Assembly (NCBI GenBank): GCA_029261475.1
Contig: JAJDBG010000043.1
Span: forward strand, 1 to 60,034
Length of the DNA stretch: 60,034 bases
Direction: 5' to 3'
Source: Nitrospinaceae bacterium
GTDB lineage: Bacteria > Nitrospinota > Nitrospinia > Nitrospinales > VA-1
Translations under genes and position numbers: made by a program
Part shown: one piece after another, positions 3,754 to 49,780 of the stretch
How the letters are laid out: each line of letters begins with the position of its first letter
Position numbering within the stretch: the first letter of the stretch is position 1
Notes under the pieces: model-generated
Seen by the model: the letters and a program-made list of their open reading frames with translations, nothing else
What the model was told of the DNA's origin: nothing
Databases searched by the model: none

Positions 3754-4890
3754 ATGAAAGTCGCCATCGTTCACGATTGGTTGACAGGCATGCGTGGTGG
3801 AGAGAAGTGCCTGGAGGTCTTTGTACGCCTGTTTCCGCAAGCTGACCTGTATACCCTCCTGCACATTAAAGGGTCTGTTTCACCGGAAATTGAAGATAGA
3901 AAGATAGCTGTTTCCTTTCTGCAGAACTTACCCTTTGTTCAATCAAAATACCGCTATTACCTCCCTTTGATGCCCTTTGCGATCTCTGGCTTTGATCTGC
4001 GCGATTACGACCTCGTTCTCAGTAGCAGTCATTGTGTGGCAAAGGCTGTTCGTGTTTCTCCCAAGGCATTGCATATTTGTTATTGCCACACTCCCATGCG
4101 GTATATCTGGGATCAGTTTGACCAGTACTTTGGTCAACCCGGATCTCCTAAGATGGCTTCCATGGCCATGAAAATAATCGCACCGGCATTGAGACGTTGG
4201 GATGTGAGAATGAACCGGCACGTTGATTTTTTCATTGCCAATTCCGAGCATGTCCAGAAGCGTATCAAAAAATATTATGACCGAGAATCCACCGTTATCT
4301 ATCCTCCCGTAGATACAGAATATTTCAAGCCACAAGGTTTGGTGAAGGGAGATTTTTTCCTCATTCTATCTGCGTTCGCTCCCTATAAGAGAGTAGATTT
4401 AGCGGTTGAAGCCTTTAATAAACTGGGGTATCCTCTTGTGATTATCGGGACGGGGCAGGATGAGGATAGGTTGCGTCGCCTTGCCAAGGAAAATATTCAG
4501 TTTAAAGGCTGGTTGGAACCTGACGAAATACGTTCCTATCTGGAGCGTTGCAGAGCCTTGATTTTTCCTGGCGAAGAAGATTTTGGAATAACTCCTGTTG
4601 AAGCGCAGGCAATGGGGCGGCCCGTTATCGCTTTTGGAAAAGGAGGCGTTCTGGAAACAGTTGTTTCGAGTTTTGGAAGCACAGTTGAAGACTCCTTTAA
4701 TTCGCAGGAACCCGCTACAGGTGTTTTTTTTAACGAACCTACAGCTGAAGCTTTGATGCAGGCAGTGGCGCATTTTGAAACGATAGAATCCTCCTTTGAT
4801 CCTAATTCCATCCGGCAAAAAGCCCAAAACTTTGATACGAAAATTTTTTCCGACCGTATCAAAAAATTTATCGACCAACAACTTTCCTAG
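3754..4890 (+). CDS. Glycosyltransferase family 4 (GT-B)
   Basis: MKVAIVHDWLTGMRGGEK, YCHTPMRY, EDFGITPVEAQA (EX7E). Confidence 0.9.
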   Translation: MKVAIVHDWLTGMRGGEKCLEVFVRLFPQADLYTLLHIKGSVSPEIEDRKIAVSFLQNLPFVQSKYRYYLPLMPFAISGFDLRDYDLVLSSSHCVAKAVRVSPKALHICYCHTPMRYIWDQFDQYFGQPGSPKMASMAMKIIAPALRRWDVRMNRHVDFFIANSEHVQKRIKKYYDRESTVIYPPVDTEYFKPQGLVKGDFFLILSAFAPYKRVDLAVEAFNKLGYPLVIIGTGQDEDRLRRLAKENIQFKGWLEPDEIRSYLERCRALIFPGEEDFGITPVEAQAMGRPVIAFGKGGVLETVVSSFGSTVEDSFNSQEPATGVFFNEPTAEALMQAVAHFETIESSFDPNSIRQKAQNFDTKIFSDRIKKFIDQQLS

Positions 4891-40769: not shown

Positions 40770-43700
40770 TTAATCCGGTGAATTAAAAGTCCGATACAGT
40801 GCGGGTAGAACAAGCAGGGTGAGTATTGTTGAGGAAACAATGCCACCGATCACTACCGTTGCCAATGGACGCTGAACTTCCGCTCCGGTCCCTGTTGCCA
40901 GAGCCATGGGAATGAATCCGAGAGACGCGACCAAAGCCGTCATCAAAACGGGTCGCAGGCGAGTGAGTGATCCTTTCCAAATAGCCTCGTCCAAAGCGAG
41001 ACCTTTTTCTCGCAATTCTTCTATGAAAGAAATCATGACCAACCCGTTCAAAACCGCTATGCCAGAAAGAGCGATGAAGCCAATGGCGGCTGAAATGGAT
41101 AAGGGAATGCCTCGAATCCACAGGAAGAAGAATCCACCTGTCAAAGCGAGAGGAATTCCTGTGAAAACAAGAAGTGAATTTTTCATGTTACCAAACGCGG
41201 CAAACAGCATGAGAAATATTAACAAAAGCGAAATAGGCACAACAAGCCACAACCTTTGAGCGGCAGAAATCATATGTTCGAATTGTCCGCCCCAGGCAAT
41301 CCAGTAACCGGGATCAATGGTGACTTTTTCTTCAATGGCCTTTTGAGCTTCTTGTACAAATGAGCCGAGATCGCGATCCCTTACATTGGCTGTGACAACG
41401 ATTCGACGCTTTCCATTTTCGCGGCTGATCTGGTTGGGGCCTTTTATGATGGAAAAATTAGCCACTGTGGAGAGTGGAATATAATTCAGGTTATGGCTTC
41501 CTCCGGGTATCTTATCGGGGGAAAAATTCTCTGGCAAGGCTATTGGAATTCTCTTGAGTAGTTCAATATTTGTTCGTATATCTTCGCGTAATCGAACCAT
41601 GATTTCGAAACGACGGTCTCCTTCAAAAACCATTCCCGCACTTTTCCCACCGATGGCAATTTCTACGGTCTCCTGTACAGTGGAAACATTTATTCCCAGT
41701 CGAGCCATTAAATCGCGGTCCAGTTCCAGCGTCAGCACAGGCAGTCCTGTCACTTGCTCGATATCAACATCAGATGCTCCTGGGATGTCTACAAGGACGT
41801 GTTCGATTTTGTCTGCTATGGAAACCAGTGTTTCCAGATCATCCCCAAAAACTTTTACCGCGACATCACTGCGTACCCCGGCGATCAATTCATTGAACCG
41901 CATTTCAATCGGTTGGATGATTTCGTATTTGTTGCCGGGGACTTGGGCTAATTTTTGTTCCAATTCTTGAATGAGATTGATTTTAGAACGCTTGGGATCG
42001 GGCCATTCCGATCGGGGTTTGATGATTGCAAATACGTCTGCAACACTTGGTGGCATGGGGTCTGTTGCAATATCTGCTGTGCCGATTTTGGCGAATACAT
42101 AGTCGACCTCCGGTAATTCCATGATTTTTTTCTCCAACACGTCTTGCATGGAAACGGCTTGAGAGAGGCTGGTTCCGGGAACACGTAAAGCGTGGATGGC
42201 TAAATCACCCTCATCCAGAGTTGGAAGAAACTCGCTCCCCATGCGCGTAGAAAGCAGAAGGCTTAGGGCAACAAGAACGCCTGCAAGGGTTATGACCGTG
42301 GGACGATTCTTCATCGAAATATTCAGCAGTGGCTCATAAATTCTACGAACGGCCATCAGTAAAATATTTTCTTTTTCAGAAATATTCCCCGATGAAAATT
42401 GAGCGACCATGGCAGGTATAAAAGTGATGGACAATATCATGGCCCCTATTAAGGCCGCCAGAACAGTGAAAGCCATCGGTTGGAACATTTTTCCTTCGAT
42501 CCCCGTCAGAGTCAGGATTGGCAGGTAGACGATCATAATGATGAGCCCACCAAAGATACTGGGGCGGGAAACTTCCTTGGTGGCATAAGCGACGATTCCA
42601 AAGCGTTCATCGCGGGTGAGTTCGCGCCCAATTTTTTTATGTTCTTCTGTCAATCTGCGTATACAGTTTTCTACGATTATTACAGCACCGTCTATGATGA
42701 TGCCAAAATCGATAGCTCCCAGGCTCAAAAGATTGCCGCTGATTTTGTTTTCAACCATTCCCGTGATTGCAAACAGCATGGAAAGAGGGATGACAAGGGC
42801 GGTGATGAGAGCGGCGCGGAAATTTCCCAAGAGTAGAAAAAGTACAGCAATGACCAGCAAGGCACCTTCCATGAGATTGTTTTTCATGGTTTCTAGAGTC
42901 GCGTTGACAAGGTGGGTACGATCGTAAACCGTTTTAGCCTTCACACCTTCAGGCAAAGAGCGATTGATTTCCTTCAATTTCTCGGCAACTCTTATTGAAA
43001 CGGTGCGGCTGTTTTCGTCCTTCAGCATAAACACCGTGCCGAGAACAGTCTCTTTACCATTTTCAGTTGCGGCTCCAGTTCTCAGCTCTTTGCCTAAAGC
43101 AACATCGGCAATATCCTTTATGTAAATGGGGGTTCCTTTGCGGGAGCCAACGATTATTTGTTTGATATCATCAATCCCGGTGACTTGTCCGGGCGTTCTG
43201 ATGAGGTATTGTGCCCCGCTATGTTCAATGTAGCCAGCCCCGGTATTGGCATTATTTTTCATTAAAGCTTCCAGCACGTCACGGAAACTTATTCGATAGG
43301 ACATGAGTTTTTCCGGATTTGGAGCGACCTGATATTGTTTTGTAAACCCTCCGATCGTGTTGACATCTGCAACGCCGGGGATATTTCTAATCTGAGGACG
43401 AATGATCCAGTCCTGAATCGTTCTCAGTTCTGCTAGCGAATAGGGCTTGCCATCAGGTTTTATAAAATCCTTGTCGGTTTCCATCGTCCATAAAAAAATC
43501 TCTCCCAACCCTGTAGCGATAGGACCCATGATCGGCTCTGTATTGGGAGGAAGGTTGCCCTTCATTTCTTGAATACGAGTGCTGATGAGTTGCCGGGCAA
43601 AGTAAATATTGGTGTCATCTTCAAAAACGACAGTGACTTGAGAGAGTCCGTAGCGTGAAATAGATCGGGTGTAAGATAACTTTGGAATTCCTGCCAAGGC

Positions 43701-43913
43701 CGTTTCAATGGGGAAGGTGATGCGGTTCTCAACTTCAAGCGGAGTGAAGCCGCGAGCTTCGGTATTGATCTGAACTTGAACGTTGGTGATGTCGGGGACT
43801 GCATCAATGGGCAGTATCTGAAAATTGTAGATTCCCGGAACGGCCAGTGCCAGAGTACCCAGGATCACAAATACTCGGTATTTTATGGAAAACTTTAATA
43901 GAGCAGAAAGCAT
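40770..43913 (-). CDS. czcA: Heavy-metal RND efflux transporter (CzcA/CusA family)
   Basis: LPIDAVPDITNVQVQINT, SLGAIDFGIIIDGAVIIVEN, EGKMFQPMA, RLRPVLMTA, GAEVQRPLATVVIGG. Confidence 0.93.
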   Translation of the reverse strand: MLSALLKFSIKYRVFVILGTLALAVPGIYNFQILPIDAVPDITNVQVQINTEARGFTPLEVENRITFPIETALAGIPKLSYTRSISRYGLSQVTVVFEDDTNIYFARQLISTRIQEMKGNLPPNTEPIMGPIATGLGEIFLWTMETDKDFIKPDGKPYSLAELRTIQDWIIRPQIRNIPGVADVNTIGGFTKQYQVAPNPEKLMSYRISFRDVLEALMKNNANTGAGYIEHSGAQYLIRTPGQVTGIDDIKQIIVGSRKGTPIYIKDIADVALGKELRTGAATENGKETVLGTVFMLKDENSRTVSIRVAEKLKEINRSLPEGVKAKTVYDRTHLVNATLETMKNNLMEGALLVIAVLFLLLGNFRAALITALVIPLSMLFAITGMVENKISGNLLSLGAIDFGIIIDGAVIIVENCIRRLTEEHKKIGRELTRDERFGIVAYATKEVSRPSIFGGLIIMIVYLPILTLTGIEGKMFQPMAFTVLAALIGAMILSITFIPAMVAQFSSGNISEKENILLMAVRRIYEPLLNISMKNRPTVITLAGVLVALSLLLSTRMGSEFLPTLDEGDLAIHALRVPGTSLSQAVSMQDVLEKKIMELPEVDYVFAKIGTADIATDPMPPSVADVFAIIKPRSEWPDPKRSKINLIQELEQKLAQVPGNKYEIIQPIEMRFNELIAGVRSDVAVKVFGDDLETLVSIADKIEHVLVDIPGASDVDIEQVTGLPVLTLELDRDLMARLGINVSTVQETVEIAIGGKSAGMVFEGDRRFEIMVRLREDIRTNIELLKRIPIALPENFSPDKIPGGSHNLNYIPLSTVANFSIIKGPNQISRENGKRRIVVTANVRDRDLGSFVQEAQKAIEEKVTIDPGYWIAWGGQFEHMISAAQRLWLVVPISLLLIFLMLFAAFGNMKNSLLVFTGIPLALTGGFFFLWIRGIPLSISAAIGFIALSGIAVLNGLVMISFIEELREKGLALDEAIWKGSLTRLRPVLMTALVASLGFIPMALATGTGAEVQRPLATVVIGGIVSSTILTLLVLPALYRTFNSPD

Positions 43914-43927
43914 TTAAATCCTTTAGG

Positions 43928-45682
43928 TTAATGGGAGTGAACAGCAGATGATTTTTCAATTTCAGCTTTCACTACGAAACTGTTTTCTGTCACATACTGT
44001 TCTCCCGCAGTCAGGCCCTTTAAAACCTCTGTCCAAGTGCCATCGCTTTCCCCCAACTCTAAAGGGCGAGCTTCAAAGAAATCTCCATAATTGACAAACA
44101 CAACAGACCAGTCTCGAATCGTCTGGATCGCCTTGGTTGGCACAGCCACAGGAACTTTTCGCTTGTCGAGAAGCAGTTCCAGTGTGACGAATGTCCCCGG
44201 TCTCCATTTGGATTTTGGATTTTGAATCACTACCCGGCCGGTAATGGTTCTATTTTTTTCGTCTATTATGGACGCGAGGTAGGTCAATTTTCCGACGGCT
44301 TTTGTTCCAAGGTTTTCATCTCGAACGGTGACCGATTGTCCCAATTTCACATATTTAATATCCTTGGCGGGGATGGCAATGTTTGCCCATAGTTCAGACA
44401 AGTCGGCGAGAAGAAAAACCCCGTCATCATTTTTAACCGCTTCCCCTGTAGATAGGTGTTTTTGAATGACCGTTCCTCCCAGGGGTGACTTCAACTCGTA
44501 TTGAGTCAAAATGGGTTCTTCCTTTTGAGATAGTTTGTCGACTTCTTCATTGGTCAAGCCCAGTGCGAAAAGTTTTTGACTGGTGGTTTGGAGCTTGAGA
44601 TTTTCCATTTCATAGGCTCTTGTTTTTTGATGAACCGCCCATTGACCGTCATAGGCAATCTTTTCGCGTATAGCAAAATAGGTAGCTTCTCGACTTTTGT
44701 AATTTTCTTCTGCCTGCAAGTATTCAGATTGTGAAGATATGCCTTTCTCAAATAATTTTTTCTCGCGCAAATAAACAGATTTTGCCAGGCTTAATTTTGA
44801 GTGTGCGGGGATGAGTAATTCCCGACTTTTCCCAACGGGAAGCTCTTTCAGCTCACGATCAATCTCCTCTTTACTGATTTCCTTTTGTAGAAGTTCCAAC
44901 ATGCGAGTGGTGTTTTTGTAAAGCAAGATCTCTCTTTCCATATCAGCTTTTACCAAACTTGTTCGTTTGGCGGCTGAAAGGTAAGCGATTTTTGTATTTG
45001 CCAGTTCACGACTCTCAATGATTGCGAGAATTTCTCCAGGGGCCACATGATCTCCCAAATCTTTAAATACCTGTTTGACGATTCCGGTGAGTCGGGGAAC
45101 AACGTGCACCACTTTTTCTTCATTCAAGCCGATTTCCCCCGATAATTTGAGGATGTTTTTCAGTCGCGCAGAACCCACTTTTTTTGTAACGATGTTTGCA
45201 TTTTTGAGAGCTGTTTCCGAAAGCTCGACACGGGCCTCAATTTGAGAAAAATTCCATTCATACTTCTGGTCTTTCCACAGAGCCTGAATTTCCATATCAA
45301 ACGAATGCGGTTCTTCAACCGTCATATCTCCCAGCAGATAATCGCCTGCGGGGTTGAAGTGGATTTCATCAATCCGGTCCAGCCGATTCAAGCGGATGGT
45401 CAGTTGCACTTCATCAAAAGGTATTTTGTCGCCTTTAGCATTGCTTGTATAAACTCTGAATTGAGGAGGGACACCGCTTTCAAATATTTTTACTTCTACC
45501 TGCAAATTGTCTTTAGAAAATAACCAGCCCCCATGTGAACCTCTTGGGATAGCATCTGTTTTCTCAGCTACAGGGCTGTGCTTGCTGGATTGAGTATTGG
45601 GATCTATTTTTAGAATTTCCATCGCCACAAAGGTTCCCACAGCAAGGATGATGATTATTGAAACTATAAATCGTTTTTTCAT
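43928..45682 (-). CDS. czcB: RND periplasmic adaptor (CzcB family)
   Basis: TM helix, PRGSHGG N-terminal domain, VVPRLTGIV, LKSPLGGTV, LADLSELWA, WRPGTFV, C-terminal HSH. Confidence 0.88.
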   Translation of the reverse strand: MKKRFIVSIIIILAVGTFVAMEILKIDPNTQSSKHSPVAEKTDAIPRGSHGGWLFSKDNLQVEVKIFESGVPPQFRVYTSNAKGDKIPFDEVQLTIRLNRLDRIDEIHFNPAGDYLLGDMTVEEPHSFDMEIQALWKDQKYEWNFSQIEARVELSETALKNANIVTKKVGSARLKNILKLSGEIGLNEEKVVHVVPRLTGIVKQVFKDLGDHVAPGEILAIIESRELANTKIAYLSAAKRTSLVKADMEREILLYKNTTRMLELLQKEISKEEIDRELKELPVGKSRELLIPAHSKLSLAKSVYLREKKLFEKGISSQSEYLQAEENYKSREATYFAIREKIAYDGQWAVHQKTRAYEMENLKLQTTSQKLFALGLTNEEVDKLSQKEEPILTQYELKSPLGGTVIQKHLSTGEAVKNDDGVFLLADLSELWANIAIPAKDIKYVKLGQSVTVRDENLGTKAVGKLTYLASIIDEKNRTITGRVVIQNPKSKWRPGTFVTLELLLDKRKVPVAVPTKAIQTIRDWSVVFVNYGDFFEARPLELGESDGTWTEVLKGLTAGEQYVTENSFVVKAEIEKSSAVHSH

Positions 45683-47007
45683 TGCAGAGGTTTTCCTTCG
45701 GCTGGCGCAGGTTTGAGTGGCATGAGTGGTTCTCCGATCAATTTTTCAACATCTGCAACGGCAATATGGTAGCTCGCTAGAGAATCTATGTATTGTTGCT
45801 TTGCGGTAAAGAATGTTTTTTGGCTGTCAAGAAATTCCAGGAATCCGAATTTCCCAAAACGGTAGCCTTCGCTAACGCCATCGAAAACCCGTTGCGCCGA
45901 TGGTAAAATTTCCGATTGCAGGGTGTTTGCCCGTGAATAGGCGAGAACAAGGTTTTGATACGCATCCATAAAGGTTTGGTTCATTTCAACTTCAGCCGAG
46001 CGTTTCTCCTCCTGGATCTGCGAGAGATTGTGCTGGGCTTCTGCAATGCCACCCTGATTCCTGTTGAAAAATTGCAGCGGAATGGAGAACCCCAAAGTCA
46101 CCGTATTGTCATCGGTTTGCTCCAATCGGCGGTAACCCCCGGATAGTGTGATATTGGGAATGCTTTTGGAACGCTCCTGCTCAACTTCCGCCTGACGCTG
46201 TTTCATCGCGCTCTTCCAGAGCTTGAAAGAGGGGGTTTGCAGAATCTTGGGTTGCAGTGTTTCGATAGGAGGTGCGGGAGAAATTTTGAACAGGTCGCCA
46301 AGAACCTTATCAAATCCCGGGTTAGCATCTCCCCAGGTACGAGAAAGTTGTCTTTTTGCTTGTTCCAGAGCCTGCTTTTTATTTTCTAATGTGATTTTAA
46401 AATTGGAGAGGGCGACCTTTGCCTTGATTTGTTCGATGGCCGCGACTTTCCCTGCCTTGACCCTTTCAGAGACAGCTTCATAAAATCTGTTTCCAAGTTC
46501 GATCAGGTCTTCTGCCAAAGAGACGCTGTGTTGCATCTTCAGAACATTGACAAAGGCTTTGTGTACGCTCATCAATACTTCTAGACGTTTGTTGTCGTAG
46601 TCCCAACCTGCAAGCTCTTCAGCGGCTTTGCCAACATTTATCCTGGCAGAACGTTTTCCTCCAAGTTCTATCAATTGTCCAAATAGCACATTTGTTTCGG
46701 AGCCACGCAATCCACCAAAAGATCCAGAACCAAAGGCATTTCCGACCTGAATGTCGAGAGTGGGGTTGGGAAACAAGCTGGACTGTAAAGTTCGAGCCGA
46801 CCGCGCACGTTTCTCCAGGGAAAAGGCTGATAATATTGGATTTTTGAGCAAGGCTCGGGCATCGGCTTCTTGCAGACTTAGATCGTTGGATCTTTTTTTT
46901 TCGATATGGAGTGTCCCATCTGGCTCGGCGGATACGTAAGAAAACGATGCCATGCCAAGAAAAGATGCGAAACTCCATAAAATGAAAAATCGTTTCATGG
47001 TTTGCAC
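45679..47007 (-). CDS. czcC: TolC-family outer membrane factor (CzcC)
   Basis: Signal peptide, PNPTL, QLIELGGKR, SIPLQFFNRNQG, GYRFGKFGFLEFLD; first gene of a CBA triad. Confidence 0.88.
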   Translation of the reverse strand: MQTMKRFFILWSFASFLGMASFSYVSAEPDGTLHIEKKRSNDLSLQEADARALLKNPILSAFSLEKRARSARTLQSSLFPNPTLDIQVGNAFGSGSFGGLRGSETNVLFGQLIELGGKRSARINVGKAAEELAGWDYDNKRLEVLMSVHKAFVNVLKMQHSVSLAEDLIELGNRFYEAVSERVKAGKVAAIEQIKAKVALSNFKITLENKKQALEQAKRQLSRTWGDANPGFDKVLGDLFKISPAPPIETLQPKILQTPSFKLWKSAMKQRQAEVEQERSKSIPNITLSGGYRRLEQTDDNTVTLGFSIPLQFFNRNQGGIAEAQHNLSQIQEEKRSAEVEMNQTFMDAYQNLVLAYSRANTLQSEILPSAQRVFDGVSEGYRFGKFGFLEFLDSQKTFFTAKQQYIDSLASYHIAVADVEKLIGEPLMPLKPAPAEGKPLQ

Positions 47008-47105
47008 GTGTAATAAATGAATCGGCGTTTACTTGTAAAATTGGCTCCTCACAGATTGCTGTGGGATATTTTCAAGCGGAATTCGACTGCTGTGTATTGC
47101 TGGGA

Positions 47106-47579
47106 TTAGATTGAGGGTACTAAAGGGGGGGATCGTTCCTGTACTTGTTGCCTGTCCAGTGAATGCCGGTGATCAGGGAAATGGGCAGGGAACCACGAGG
47201 CTTTGGGAATAGGATTGAATTTATGAATCGAAAAATTGGATACCAGCTTTAAAACTGTGTGCGATTTTTGCGGCTCCAGGGTTTTATTATTGGGCTGAAT
47301 ATCAGGCTGATCTCCATCCGATGCGATAGGGTGGTGCGGATGGTGATGGTCGGAATCTTCACTATGAGACGAAGCACTATGATCCGAAGTTTGATGGACA
47401 ATGTTCTCTATGGTCAGTGAGTGATAATGCCCTTTATGCTGGTGTGGCGTGAGCTGGTCCGTATGCGCATGAGTTATTTCTGGATGATAATGGTAATAGG
47501 GCAACAGCAGAAACTGAATTCCTATCACAAGGGTCATCGCGACCAGACTCATCCTGAAATTTTGAATGTGTTTGCGCAT
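47106..47579 (-). CDS. His-rich membrane/exported protein with a C-terminal RSPP motif (CzcI/DUF2946-like leader)
   Basis: Hydrophobic N-terminal helix, many His residues (YYHYH, HAH, HQHKGHYH, DHHHPHH), ends QERSPPLVPSI; directly upstream of czcC. Confidence 0.75.
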   Translation of the reverse strand: MRKHIQNFRMSLVAMTLVIGIQFLLLPYYHYHPEITHAHTDQLTPHQHKGHYHSLTIENIVHQTSDHSASSHSEDSDHHHPHHPIASDGDQPDIQPNNKTLEPQKSHTVLKLVSNFSIHKFNPIPKASWFPAHFPDHRHSLDRQQVQERSPPLVPSI

Positions 47580-47626
47580 AATTCCGTTCGTAAAATTGAA
47601 AGCTACTTACAGTATCGGCTTTTGAT

Positions 47627-47662
47627 TCCAATAATATAATTAATATTCATGTTATTGGACAA
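47627..47662 (-). promoter_or_regulatory. Candidate promoter/operator of the czc operon
   Basis: TCCAATAA-N17-TTATTGGA inverted repeat overlapping a minus-strand TTGTCC-N18-TATATT. Confidence 0.35.
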
Positions 47663-47881
47663 CTTATTTCATAGTGTTAGGATAGCTTACCGTTTGCATT
47701 GAGGTTTGTCGAGAACGGTTTTAAATCTTGTATTCAAGCCCAATTTGTTTTACAAATTATTAAAGAGTGTCTCTCCAAGTTTATTTTTGGCCTAGCCATC
47801 CCTTGCAAAATTGGGGCCGTGTTATTGTGCTAAATCACTTATTATTTGAGATACTTCCCCTCCTTTAAATACGTTGAGATC

Positions 47882-49780
47882 ATGAATGATCCCCAAAATT
47901 TAGCCCCCTCTGCCGATACGGGTTCGCGTATCCAGATACTGCCCGATGATTTGTCCAATCAGATAGCCGCAGGCGAGGTGGTGGAGCGTCCCGCTTCAGT
48001 GGTCAAAGAGTTGGTAGAAAACTCAATCGATGCTGGGGCGAAGAAAATCATCATTGAGATTGAAAAAGGCGGCAAAGATTTGATCCGTGTTGATGACGAC
48101 GGTTGCGGCATGTCCTGGGAAGATGCGGAGCTGGCTTTTTCCCGGCACGCAACAAGCAAGATATCGACTCAGGAGGATTTAGAACGTATCAACACCTTTG
48201 GTTTTCGTGGAGAGGCCCTTCCCAGTATCGGGTCAGTGGCCAAGGTTCGACTCACCAGTTCTCTGGATGAGAATCGAGGCGGCAAACTGGTGGCTATTGA
48301 GGCTGGAAAGTTGCAAACCACCCGACAGATTGGGCGGCCCCAGGGGACTATGATCGAAGTTCGTCACTTGTTTTTTAACACTCCCGCGCGGCGAAAGTTT
48401 CTGAAAGGTGACAGCACCGAGTTTTCGCACATTGCGCAGGGGGTGACGCAACAGGCACTGGCTCGCCCTGAAATTCATTTTAGCTTGATTCATAACGGGC
48501 GCAGTATCATCAACACAGCCCCTACGGAGCAGTTATTGTACCGCATTGCAGAATTGTTCGGCTCTGAACTTGCGGGTGAACTGGTCCCTGTAAATGCGTC
48601 TGCTGGAGATTATCATTTGAGTGGTTTTGTTTCAAATCCAGTTTACACACGCTCGAACCGAACCAATCAATACGTTTATGTGAACGGTCGTCTGGTGCGA
48701 GACAAGGTCATTCAGCATGCGACGCAGTTGGGTTATAGCTATCTGCTTCCCAAAGGCCAACATCCGGTGATATTTCTTTTTTTAACTATGGACCCGGCTT
48801 TGGTGGATGTGAATGTACATCCCTCCAAGGCAGAAGTGCGTTTTGCATTCCAAAATGAAGTGCATCGCTTCGTCAGTCAATCCGTACGTTCAGCTCTTTC
48901 CGAGAGTGGCAAACAACTCCCACTTGAATCGCCACAGAGAGAAGAAGTGGGAGATAGGGGACAAGCTGAGTACCGACAGAACGAGCAAGGGCAGAGCGCA
49001 CAAACTTCAATGGGGCGAGCTACTGATTCCAATGATTATGGAAATCGGCCCGAATCCTTGATTCCCTTTGCACGCGAAAAATTTGGGGATGTGCAAAAGT
49101 CTCTGTCTGCACTCTATGGAGGACTTGGGACTCAGCCTGCGCCTGTGGGTAGCCCCGGTATGGATTCGGCGCATATTTTTGAGAAGGCGGGGACGCCTAT
49201 TTCGGAGTTGATGTATTCAGAATTTGAACCCATCGGCCAGCTGGAAAATTCTTTCATCATCATGCAGGGGAAGAGAGGCGTTTTACTGGTCGATCAGCAC
49301 ATTGCTCACGAGCGTGTCTTGTACGAACGCTTTCGTGAGGCGGCAAAGGATAAAAGGGTAGACGTTCAGCAATTATTGTTTCCAGAATCCTTGGAATTCT
49401 CGCCGAGCGAGGCGCAAATTCTGGGCGATCAACTGGAACTTTTGAAAGGTCTTGGGCTTGAACTGGAGCCTTTTGGCGAAAATGGATTCCTCTTACGTTC
49501 GGTCCCGGCAATTTTGAAGAACGTGGATTACAGTCAGGTGATCCGTGAAATCCTGGAATTGACAGACGGAAGTGCCTTGCAGAAAAAATACGATGAACTT
49601 TTGATCATGATGGCCTGTAAAAGCGCGATCAAGATCAATCATCCAATGGATTTTGACCAAATGCGCAAACTGATTTCAGATTTGGAAAAAACAGAGATGC
49701 CGTATACCTGTCCCCATGGCAGACCCATCTCCCTGTTGTTTGACATGAACGATATTCTGAAACGTTTCCTGCGGAAATGA
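47882..49780 (+). CDS. mutL: DNA mismatch repair protein MutL
   Basis: IAAGEVVERPASVVKELVENSIDAG, HATSKI, GFRGEAL, DVNVHPSKAEV, DQHIAHER, ACK, CPHGRP endonuclease motifs. Confidence 0.96.
   Translation: MNDPQNLAPSADTGSRIQILPDDLSNQIAAGEVVERPASVVKELVENSIDAGAKKIIIEIEKGGKDLIRVDDDGCGMSWEDAELAFSRHATSKISTQEDLERINTFGFRGEALPSIGSVAKVRLTSSLDENRGGKLVAIEAGKLQTTRQIGRPQGTMIEVRHLFFNTPARRKFLKGDSTEFSHIAQGVTQQALARPEIHFSLIHNGRSIINTAPTEQLLYRIAELFGSELAGELVPVNASAGDYHLSGFVSNPVYTRSNRTNQYVYVNGRLVRDKVIQHATQLGYSYLLPKGQHPVIFLFLTMDPALVDVNVHPSKAEVRFAFQNEVHRFVSQSVRSALSESGKQLPLESPQREEVGDRGQAEYRQNEQGQSAQTSMGRATDSNDYGNRPESLIPFAREKFGDVQKSLSALYGGLGTQPAPVGSPGMDSAHIFEKAGTPISELMYSEFEPIGQLENSFIIMQGKRGVLLVDQHIAHERVLYERFREAAKDKRVDVQQLLFPESLEFSPSEAQILGDQLELLKGLGLELEPFGENGFLLRSVPAILKNVDYSQVIREILELTDGSALQKKYDELLIMMACKSAIKINHPMDFDQMRKLISDLEKTEMPYTCPHGRPISLLFDMNDILKRFLRK

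Follow-up and report, generated by a model that had tools for sequence, protein, structure and literature searches.

The element described here is a small open reading frame (ORF) on the minus strand of a 60,034-nucleotide contig from a Nitrospinaceae bacterium (JAJDBG010000043.1; the whole of this stretch is called the window below), where it lies immediately 5' of the genes czcC, czcB and czcA and in the same orientation. We refer to it as the leader. An earlier note, made from the sequence alone, had described a 157-amino-acid (aa), His-rich, Cys-free product with a hydrophobic N-terminal helix and the motif RSPP five residues before its stop, followed on the same strand by czcCBA, and these descriptions were borne out. 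The three downstream genes match their family models, and a pump, an adaptor and an outer-membrane factor encoded in one operon make this a CzcCBA heavy-metal RND efflux system. The features are collected in Table 1. The likely start of czcC is the ATG at 46998 (MKRFF...), as in relatives, and the spacer between it and the leader stop is then 107 nucleotides (nt); the first in-frame start codon is the GTG at 47007, with which the spacer would be 98 nt. Our analysis established the anatomy of the leader, its conservation, its synteny and the rarity of its C-terminal motif.

Table 1. Features of the leader-czcCBA locus, in window coordinates.
Feature	Position	Strand	Remarks
czcA, CusA/CzcA-family heavy-metal RND pump	40770..43913	-	TIGR00914, 1563.6 bits (cut-off 701.45)
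czcB, periplasmic adaptor	43928..45682	-	HlyD_D23 (PF16576), E 4.5e-41, above cut-off; TIGR01730, 120.6 bits (cut-off 94.9)
czcC, outer-membrane factor	45679..46998	-	OEP match, E 1e-41; PF02321 above cut-off
Imperfect intergenic hairpin	47031..47077	-	starts 30 nt after leader stop
C-rich, G-poor, mostly unpaired spacer	47078..47105	-	with the ORF 3' end, a possible Rho-loading region
Tail codons LVPSI + TAA	47106..47123	-	five residues after RSPP here
Leader ORF	47106..47579	-	ATG start, 157 aa + TAA stop; window member of an unannotated His-rich family
RSPP (R149 S150 P151 P152; CGA TCC CCC CCT)	47124..47135	-	proposed ribosome arrest motif
Linker, codons 66-147	47139..47384	-	sequence poorly conserved, length conserved; predicted disordered (pLDDT 46-68)
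His block HYHPEITHAHTDQLTPHQHKGHYHS, codons 30-54	47418..47492	-	four HxH pairs; proposed periplasmic metal sensor
N-terminal anchor, codons 2-28	47496..47576	-	AlphaFold2 helix, pLDDT 79-96
Promoter-like site TTGTCC, 18-nt spacer, TATATT	47633..47662	-	about 54 nt upstream of leader ORF; consensus scan

The leader protein contains 22 His residues and no Cys. It begins with a basic segment (MRKHIQNFR) followed by a hydrophobic stretch (MRKHIQNFRMSLVAMTLVIGIQFLLLP), and a start of this kind, which corresponds to the localisation signal of RAPP-like arrest peptides, is present in all 30 sequences of our leader alignment (A2; mean column identity 34%). No small-x-small cleavage site is visible in A2, and the positive-inside rule suggests that the segment is an uncleaved signal-anchor with its N-terminus inside and its C-terminus outside. 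When A2 was given to AlphaFold2 as input, the four HxH pairs (residues 30-53) were modelled as four short strands with a predicted local distance difference test (pLDDT) score of 85-90, followed by a helix at residues 55-65; past residue 65 there was no structure (pLDDT about 46-68). A second, semi-conserved His/Asp patch lies in the linker (DHHHPHHP, of which HHHPHH is codons 78-83). As modelled, the leader is an anchor, a mini-domain of about 35 residues that carries the His cluster, a disordered tether of conserved length and a terminal RxPP. Some ten residues of the mature protein would be cytoplasmic, so that it could signal inwards only as a nascent chain. A promoter-like site precedes the ORF, and the consensus scan that found it, which is a pattern match only (five sites against 2.5 expected in shuffles), gave no other on the minus strand between this site or the leader ORF and czcC.

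The C-terminus of the protein reads ...QVQERSPPLVPSI (ERSPPLVPSI). The earlier note had named conservation of the motif and of its position among homologues as a check on its idea that this is an arrest sequence, and the outcome was clear: R-[S/A/G]-P-P stands near the stop in 63 of the 64 homologous ORFs obtained from genomes, with the His cluster at a fixed distance from it. The motif is RSPP in 49 of these, RAPP in 10, RGPP in four and LSPP in one, this R-to-L replacement being the sole change at an Arg or Pro position. The LSPP sequence (ORF 4106-4585 on the minus strand of L072, G114:C53) belongs to a distant member that still precedes czcC-like and czcB-like genes, and it may be a natural loss-of-arrest variant. 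Among 40 proteins recovered by protein searches, R[SAG]PP occurs within the last 20 residues of 33, which are all the full-length ones; the other seven are six shorter or C-terminally divergent proteins (73-144 aa), which we read as fragments, and one unrelated match of 1947 aa. All four motif codons vary synonymously (CGA/CGT/CGC/AGG; TCC/TCT/TCG; CCN), so that it is the peptide that is conserved and not the RNA. The motif is followed by four residues in 44 of the 64 homologues (range 1-11), mostly hydrophobic ones.

The motif is avoided elsewhere in this genome. Among 776,069 residues in 2102 non-overlapping ORFs of 150 aa or more, taken as a proxy proteome, there are two occurrences of R[SAG]PP where composition predicts 15.3, and one of the two is the leader, which is also the only one of these long ORFs to contain RSPP; the reversed control, PP[SAG]R, occurs 17 times in the same set against the same expectation of 15.3. 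The leader therefore has the features by which RAPP-like arrest peptides are recognised: an R-x-P-P core, close to the C-terminus of a protein with a localisation signal, encoded upstream of and co-oriented with the genes concerned, and a motif that is scarce in other proteins. Passages of a recent survey of such peptides (PMC12992588) describe arrest of ApdA, ApdP and ApcA with the third residue of RAPP/G in the ribosomal P site and the fourth in the A site. Every substitution of the Arg or of the P-site Pro abolished arrest in ApdA, as did every substitution of the Arg in ApdP; replacement of the Ala by Gly was fully permissive, and by Ser, Asp or Pro partially so. Random screens for arrest in Escherichia coli recovered RxPP with G, A, S or P as x, RSPP is among the most under-represented tetrapeptides, and RAPP and RGPP are concentrated close to the C-terminal ends of small exported proteins encoded upstream of sec and metal-related genes (PMC12992588). 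To judge from the aligned sequences, the natural variation in the leader family, with R, P and P fixed and S, A or G as x, is a close match to this published tolerance.

The leader ORF has no match in Pfam or NCBIfam at E<=1, and a Pfam scan of the 30 aligned members produced only five single-member chance matches at E<=10. An exhaustive HMMER search of 1.84 billion representative proteins returned 37 matches at E<=1e-3, which makes this a narrow family; word-indexed protein searches returned two matches with the single leader protein and five with a profile. A first search of relatives found homologues in 30 of 41 genomes, and a profile search across the phylum found them in 73 of 120 genomes (40 of the 57 of high quality), including five weak matches in a second order. 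In an ESM Atlas look-up of the leader, the phylum most often represented in the nearest clusters was Nitrospinota. Outside it, the closest cluster with a name was one of Bacteroidota (score 0.96, 156/256 shared features), 35% of whose members are DUF6769 (PF20558) proteins; the Pfam scan found no PF20558 match among the members of A2, and the Bacteroidota set may be an analogous leader family.

Conservation within the family is concentrated in two places. The only invariant columns of A2 are H30, H32, H37, H39, H46, H48, H53 and S54, and R149, P151 and P152. The proteins are all small (148-189 aa, within the 300-aa bound used for small proteins), and in 45 sequences 112-123 residues (median 118) separate the first HxH from the Arg of RxPP; the stretch of some 80 residues that connects the His cluster with the motif is almost devoid of sequence conservation across the family. 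No Cys column is conserved, and 22 of the 45 members contain any Cys at all.

The association with czc genes is equally regular. Both the window and each of the first 29 relatives examined have the leader immediately 5' of czcC-czcB-czcA and in the same orientation. Fifteen further copies at 13 loci comprise ten that are followed by a czcC-like gene and, where the contig allows, by a czcB-like gene, two that lie at contig ends and three that are paralogues, in genus g11, upstream of something other than czcC. The ten include the four copies from the distant order for which the contig extends into the next gene; their OEP proteins are only about 21% identical to that of the window. A czcC-like gene thus stands 3' of the leader in 40 of the 45 copies that were examined for a downstream gene. 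For 19 more copies the analysis covered about 400 nt downstream, where signal-peptide-like starts were seen. The earlier note had also seen no CzcRS-type regulator nearby, and this holds for the ten flanking ORFs that were scanned, none of which matches a transcription-regulator family; the other flanking ORFs lay outside the scan.

The genus g11 paralogues (L073:2112-4478, L075:626-2987 and L085) end in ERSPP plus 4-10 residues and lie upstream of a unit composed of DUF6488, HupE_UreJ_2 and 193-aa ORFs. In L073 the genes are those for a DUF6488 protein, a HupE_UreJ_2 membrane protein (E 1.9e-55) and an unassigned ORF of 193 aa; the HupE_UreJ_2-type and 193-aa ORFs of L075 are the same as these by sequence. 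That one leader family stands before two metal-transport operons with no relation to each other is more easily understood of a regulatory module than of a pump subunit. The HupE/UreJ family has often been linked to the homeostasis of nickel and cobalt, according to passages of PMC9973294. Two further arrangements place such genes beside czc genes. In L073 the paralogue-HupE_UreJ_2 unit lies directly upstream of the leader-czcCBA unit, and in L027 (G014:C169, 2319-3410) a 363-aa ORF with the HupE_UreJ_2 motif of L073 (...THMLTGYDHLLF...) lies immediately upstream of leader-czcCBA, which again, to judge by the motif, ties HupE_UreJ_2-like and czc transport genes together.

The spacer between the leader and czcC contains a hairpin, which the earlier note had pointed out. 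The structure is real (-13.7 kcal/mol, z -3.83; one of 200 dinucleotide shuffles folds as well), and no fold of the window connects it with either the stall site or the start of czcC; nothing unusual was seen for the surrounding 151-nt region as a whole (z -1.22). The same-genus relative L009 preserves the stems of the hairpin, with no compensatory changes. An Rfam search of 46900-47900 gave no match at E<=1, and the hairpin is not followed by a U run on the mRNA strand. A single terminator-like site came out of the scan, namely the hairpin read in antisense (47048-47065, plus strand, then ATATTTTCAA), and no plus-strand gene ends there. A GAGGAG in the 3' arm was considered as a masked Shine-Dalgarno sequence and rejected: 37 nt separate it from the first start codon, and the same-genus relative has not kept it. 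In genus g11 the centre of the spacer also forms a hairpin, with six pairs that show compensatory changes among nine sequences. Spacer hairpins are a recurrent feature of these leader-czc operons.

How a ribosome parked at the motif might be read out by the downstream genes is the weak side of the argument; two routes come into question, and the loci differ in which of them they favour. We folded each locus from upstream of the motif to position +40 of czcC and looked for the partners of the czcC start region (-15..+5). At 15 of 28 loci the 28-nt window likeliest to pair with the start region starts at some point from 11 nt upstream to 21 nt downstream of the P-site codon, in the tail codons, the stop or the first bases of the spacer, out of a possible range of about -90 to +160; several of these 15 have few expected pairs, and the loci are mutually related. 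With the ribosome footprint forced open, the start region became more accessible by over 0.15 at only four of the 28. In genus g13 (four sequences) RNAalifold predicts a 14-bp helix between the tail and stop codons (...UCCUUUCCUGAUCC) and the Shine-Dalgarno region of czcC (GGGAAAGGA), with one compensatory pair and several G-U changes. The czcC start of the window has no Shine-Dalgarno sequence and lies in AU-rich sequence. In the folds its start region has coding sequence further downstream as its main partner (10.3 expected pairs), and within the first codons (46998-46975, minus strand) the start AUGAAA can pair with UUUCAU 5 nt downstream (AUGAAACGAUUUUUCAU); this pairing may be a simple consequence of the conserved M-K-R-F-F-I codons.

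The composition of the transcript is consistent with the other route. C exceeds G in every 78-nt window centred from -90 to 0 relative to the leader stop at all 49 loci, with an excess that peaks at +0.20 at the 3' end of the ORF and is gone beyond +60. Over the stretch [-60,+20] the mean content is 33% C and 15% G (34% and 15% in the window), and this stretch is more open than the remainder of the spacer at 42 of 46 loci. The window's genome has a rho gene. It is a plausible inference that the favoured read-out in the window is by Rho, with the hairpin as a possible pause or termination point.

These observations lead us to propose that the leader is a cis-acting, metal-sensing arrest leader of czcCBA, similar in kind to CutF and CruR and belonging to a separate, His-only family. 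We consider this reading probable, though well short of certain, and it is compatible with a second role for the mature protein. The signal-anchor would insert the nascent chain into the membrane co-translationally and so place the HxH cluster at the periplasmic face. About 118 residues further on, the ribosome would pause at R-S-P-P; Pro151 would then occupy the P site and Pro152 the A site, if ApdA and ApdP are a guide. The length of the pause would be set by zinc, cobalt, cadmium or nickel on the His cluster, bound metal prolonging it as copper is reported to do with CutF, and a ribosome parked five codons before the stop would keep czcCBA expressed. In the window the likeliest route is that the ribosome covers the C-rich 3' end, so that Rho could neither load there nor terminate transcription in the 107-nt spacer, as in CruR; in some other genera the parked ribosome would melt the helix that pairs the tail codons with the ribosome-binding site of czcC, in the manner of SecM and CutF. 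A wider proposal follows the same lines, and we hold it more tentatively, at a little less than an even chance. It is that czc genes across the phylum, together with a HupE/UreJ operon in one genus, are controlled by a portable, Cys-free, membrane-anchored nascent-chain sensor in which four periplasmic HxH pairs read zinc, cobalt, cadmium or nickel, and a spacing of about 118 residues relays this to an RSPP arrest site at the peptidyl-transferase centre, so that the parked ribosome gates Rho or initiation, with no two-component or MerR regulator; the family would be an independent, His-based counterpart of the DUF2946 leaders and the first natural family that is mainly RSPP.

Several points weigh against a role in arrest. 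RSPP is only partially permissive in ApdA and ApdP, and the arrest motif alone is insufficient without a suitable upstream sequence (both according to passages of PMC12992588); in the leader family, conservation of the 10-15 residues that lead up to RxPP does not go beyond sub-groups. The model shows the His cluster as a small folded unit (pLDDT 85-96), and this unit and the second His patch suggest that the mature protein may also, or only, be a metal-binding accessory. The homologues are mutually related and the counts given above do not represent independent events. If the HupE/UreJ protein is a metal importer, the two operons would need opposite responses to metal. As for the read-out, the hairpin of the window starts about 50 nt past the P site and hence out of reach of the stalled ribosome, and the C>G bias is in part due to His and Pro codons. 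The unmasking of the czcC start by a stalled ribosome is not predicted for the window (0.1-0.3 expected pairs; unpaired fraction 0.35 before and 0.33 after), and a general intrinsic attenuator was rejected, hairpin-plus-U sites being found in nine of 48 spacers and not in that of the window.

The likeliest alternative is that the protein is a structural accessory of the pump, an anchored periplasmic chaperone, buffer or gatekeeper for metal in the manner of CusF, CzcE or ZraP; we think it unlikely, and we take the same view of its corollary, that RxPP and the hydrophobic tail form a binding or processing motif, for example for a PDZ-domain protease or for CzcB/CzcC. Seven invariant His residues in a confidently modelled, membrane-adjacent mini-domain, the further semi-conserved His/Asp patch and a full-sized gene of about 150-190 codons in stable synteny beside transport genes are what such a protein would lead one to expect. 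The residues after RxPP are mostly hydrophobic and fixed in number, and if they were synthesised only once a stall had ended, their conservation would call for an explanation. The tail can, however, be explained through the RNA, since its U/C-rich codons pair with the Shine-Dalgarno region of czcC in genus g13, and the motif itself is of a class that proteomes avoid and that is found near the C-termini of small exported proteins (PMC12992588, in part), the leader being its sole RSPP example here. A disordered linker of about 80 unconserved residues and fixed length is odd for a binding partner but expected of a tether or ruler, and members of the family stand before an unrelated HupE_UreJ_2 operon as well.

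Two other explanations were weighed. An intergenic hairpin acting as the regulator, whether as a metal-responsive RNA, an attenuator or a processing site, would make the C-terminus of the leader irrelevant. The significant stability of the hairpin and the presence of hairpins in the spacers of relatives, with covariation in genus g11, speak for it, but conservation of sequence only within a genus, the negative Rfam result, the missing U run and a czcC start region that lies outside the hairpin do not, and the invariance of RxPP would be left unexplained; we give this explanation a poor chance. An arrest peptide that monitors the capacity of Sec, YidC or the signal recognition particle rather than metal, as SecM, MifM and ApdP do, with its His cluster put to some other use, strikes us as very improbable: an N-terminal localisation signal with a C-terminal RxPP is indeed the architecture of Sec/YidC monitors (PMC7897499, PMC10987492 and PMC12992588, passages), yet the identifiable downstream genes are always metal transporters and never sec or yidC, and the seven invariant residues that accompany the motif are typical metal ligands. 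We prefer a nascent-chain regulator to an ordinary accessory because an arrest-type motif occupies a fixed place before the stop in a genome that avoids it, and because the tether is free of conserved sequence, the cytoplasmic part is about ten residues long and the module is used again before an unrelated operon.

A second candidate leader is present in the same genome. On contig C80 (L081:416-907, minus strand) an ORF of 163 aa has a signal-peptide-like start, a His run (HHEHHHAH), several Cys residues and the C-terminus ...FTRAGPPNPPPR*, in which a SecM-type RAGP is followed by a Pro-rich tail. It has no Pfam match. The ORF overlaps the stop of an unassigned 257-aa ORF, downstream of a gene for a TlpA-like thioredoxin, and the contig ends 415 nt after it.

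Already in print are the arrest-leader principle, its connection with OEP/CzcC neighbours and the fact that His-only relatives exist, as passages of PMC9973294 make plain. Our literature search, which did not extend to the supplements of PMC9973294 and PMC12992588 and the member lists that these may hold, found no account of the leader family, of a mostly-RSPP family, of a signal-anchored, His-only leader of czcCBA or of phylum-wide use, and no paper in which Nitrospina is brought together with arrest or RSPP. Arrest leaders that sense metal have been discovered only recently, and those that have been studied, CruR and CutF, are based on copper and Cys and lie in or near DUF2946. If our reading is correct, the principle extends to ligands that are His only and to an RND pump of the Zn/Co/Cd type, to a signal-anchor in place of a cleaved signal, and to a poorly studied phylum of marine nitrite oxidisers, and RSPP is added as a natural arrest core. 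The fixed distance from ligand to arrest site (median 118) suits the family to the study of how a periplasmic event is relayed through a nascent chain, and the natural paralogues before a second, unrelated operon likewise suit it to mechanistic work. The annotation of the 'hypothetical proteins' of about 150 aa whose genes precede czcC in these genomes can now be replaced by one that lends itself to testing.

One known protein in the same position as the leader is CzcI of Cupriavidus metallidurans (plasmid pMOL30), also a small exported, His-containing protein encoded directly upstream of czcC and one that has been discussed as a possible metal-sensing regulator (PMC9973294, in part). Homology between the two was considered and rejected: hhalign of A2 against CzcI gave a probability of 5.7% over 16 columns of the hydrophobic segment only. 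CzcI differs in being 115 aa long, in having Cys residues and a weak, sub-threshold DUF2946 match (E 0.026), and in a C-terminus (...NARAPDRPQWQRLA) without RxPP; the pMOL30 cluster also differs in including czcR and czcS, whereas the ten flanking ORFs scanned in the window contain no regulator family. C. metallidurans CzcI is said in passages of PMC9973294 to lack a Pro motif. The pMOL30 czcI gene (L102:15177-15524) encodes RAPD nine residues before the C-terminus, and RAPD is among the motifs of upstream ORFs (uORFs) that cluster with ApcA (PMC10987492, in part).

With ApdA, ApdP, ApcA and SecM the leader shares a C-terminal R-x-P-P core with invariant Arg and Pro and a small middle residue (PMC7897499, PMC10951233, PMC10987492 and PMC12992588, passages). 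Like the RAPP-like peptides in general it has this motif near the C-terminus of a small protein with a localisation signal and a proteome that is otherwise depleted of it (PMC12992588, in part). Those that have been characterised regulate sec or yidC genes and their stalling has been demonstrated, whereas the leader family is known from sequence. According to passages of PMC12992588, the survey of RAPP and RGPP peptides proposed His/Cys arrest peptides as metal sensors and listed TonB receptors, YcnI, PCu(A)C and PepSY among metal-related downstream genes. It searched for RAPP and RGPP only, while the leader family is mostly RSPP (49 of 64), and those passages name no RND or czc genes downstream.

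The earlier note had compared the leader with the DUF2946 uORFs CruR and CutF. Its account of them agrees with the passages of PMC9426467 and PMC9973294 that describe them, and the leader itself is not a DUF2946 protein by the Pfam model: none of 30 members matches DUF2946 (PF11162, the family of CruR, CutF and CopL) at E<=10, there is no match in the window's genome (87% complete), and neither A2 nor the set of 45 members contains a conserved CxxC or Cys-containing DUF2946-type motif. The fixed ligand-to-motif distance that is characteristic of DUF2946 leaders is found in the leader family too, as an analogous feature and not as evidence of homology. In CruR (Bp2923) of Bordetella pertussis the uORF's 3' part, unstructured and richer in C than in G, serves as a rut site for Rho-dependent termination in a 162-nt spacer; a stalled ribosome prevents termination and copper relieves the stall (PMC9426467, passages). 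Shared with CruR, according to the same source, are an RxPP 3-4 residues before the stop (three follow RAPP in CruR), a conserved spacing from ligand to arrest site (from CxxC to RAPP in CruR), a C>G-rich, unstructured 3' end of the uORF and a long spacer (162 nt there, 107 nt here) before a gene for an outer-membrane protein. CruR differs in its membership of DUF2946 and in its use of CxxC and copper, which it is reported to sense in the cytoplasm independently of its signal peptide. Its logic also differs, since metal relieves arrest there and turns an uptake gene off, and an efflux pump would need the opposite (PMC9426467, in part).

In CutF of Rhodobacter capsulatus, copper on a periplasmic motif of the nascent chain prolongs stalling and melts a stem-loop over the ribosome-binding site of cutO, and the protein is reported to act only in cis (PMC9973294; bioRxiv 10.1101/2025.02.05.636593; passages of both). 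CutF differs from the leader family in having a PPP-type motif in place of RxPP, and the ligands of the leaders are His only, with no Cys motif; a cutO-type stem-loop masking the ribosome-binding site is not predicted in the window. The survey of CutF-like proteins kept only those shorter than 150 aa, a filter that most members of the leader family exceed (PMC9973294, in part). The resemblance is nevertheless broad. Both are small exported proteins encoded directly upstream of a metal-homeostasis operon, and both combine a periplasmic metal-binding motif with a C-terminal, Pro-containing motif of the stalling type. Passages of PMC9973294 report that CutF-like genes most often have an OEP (CusC/CzcC) gene as their neighbour and that two clusters of His-only CutF-like sequences precede HupE/UreJ genes, which is the same context as that of the leader paralogues described here.

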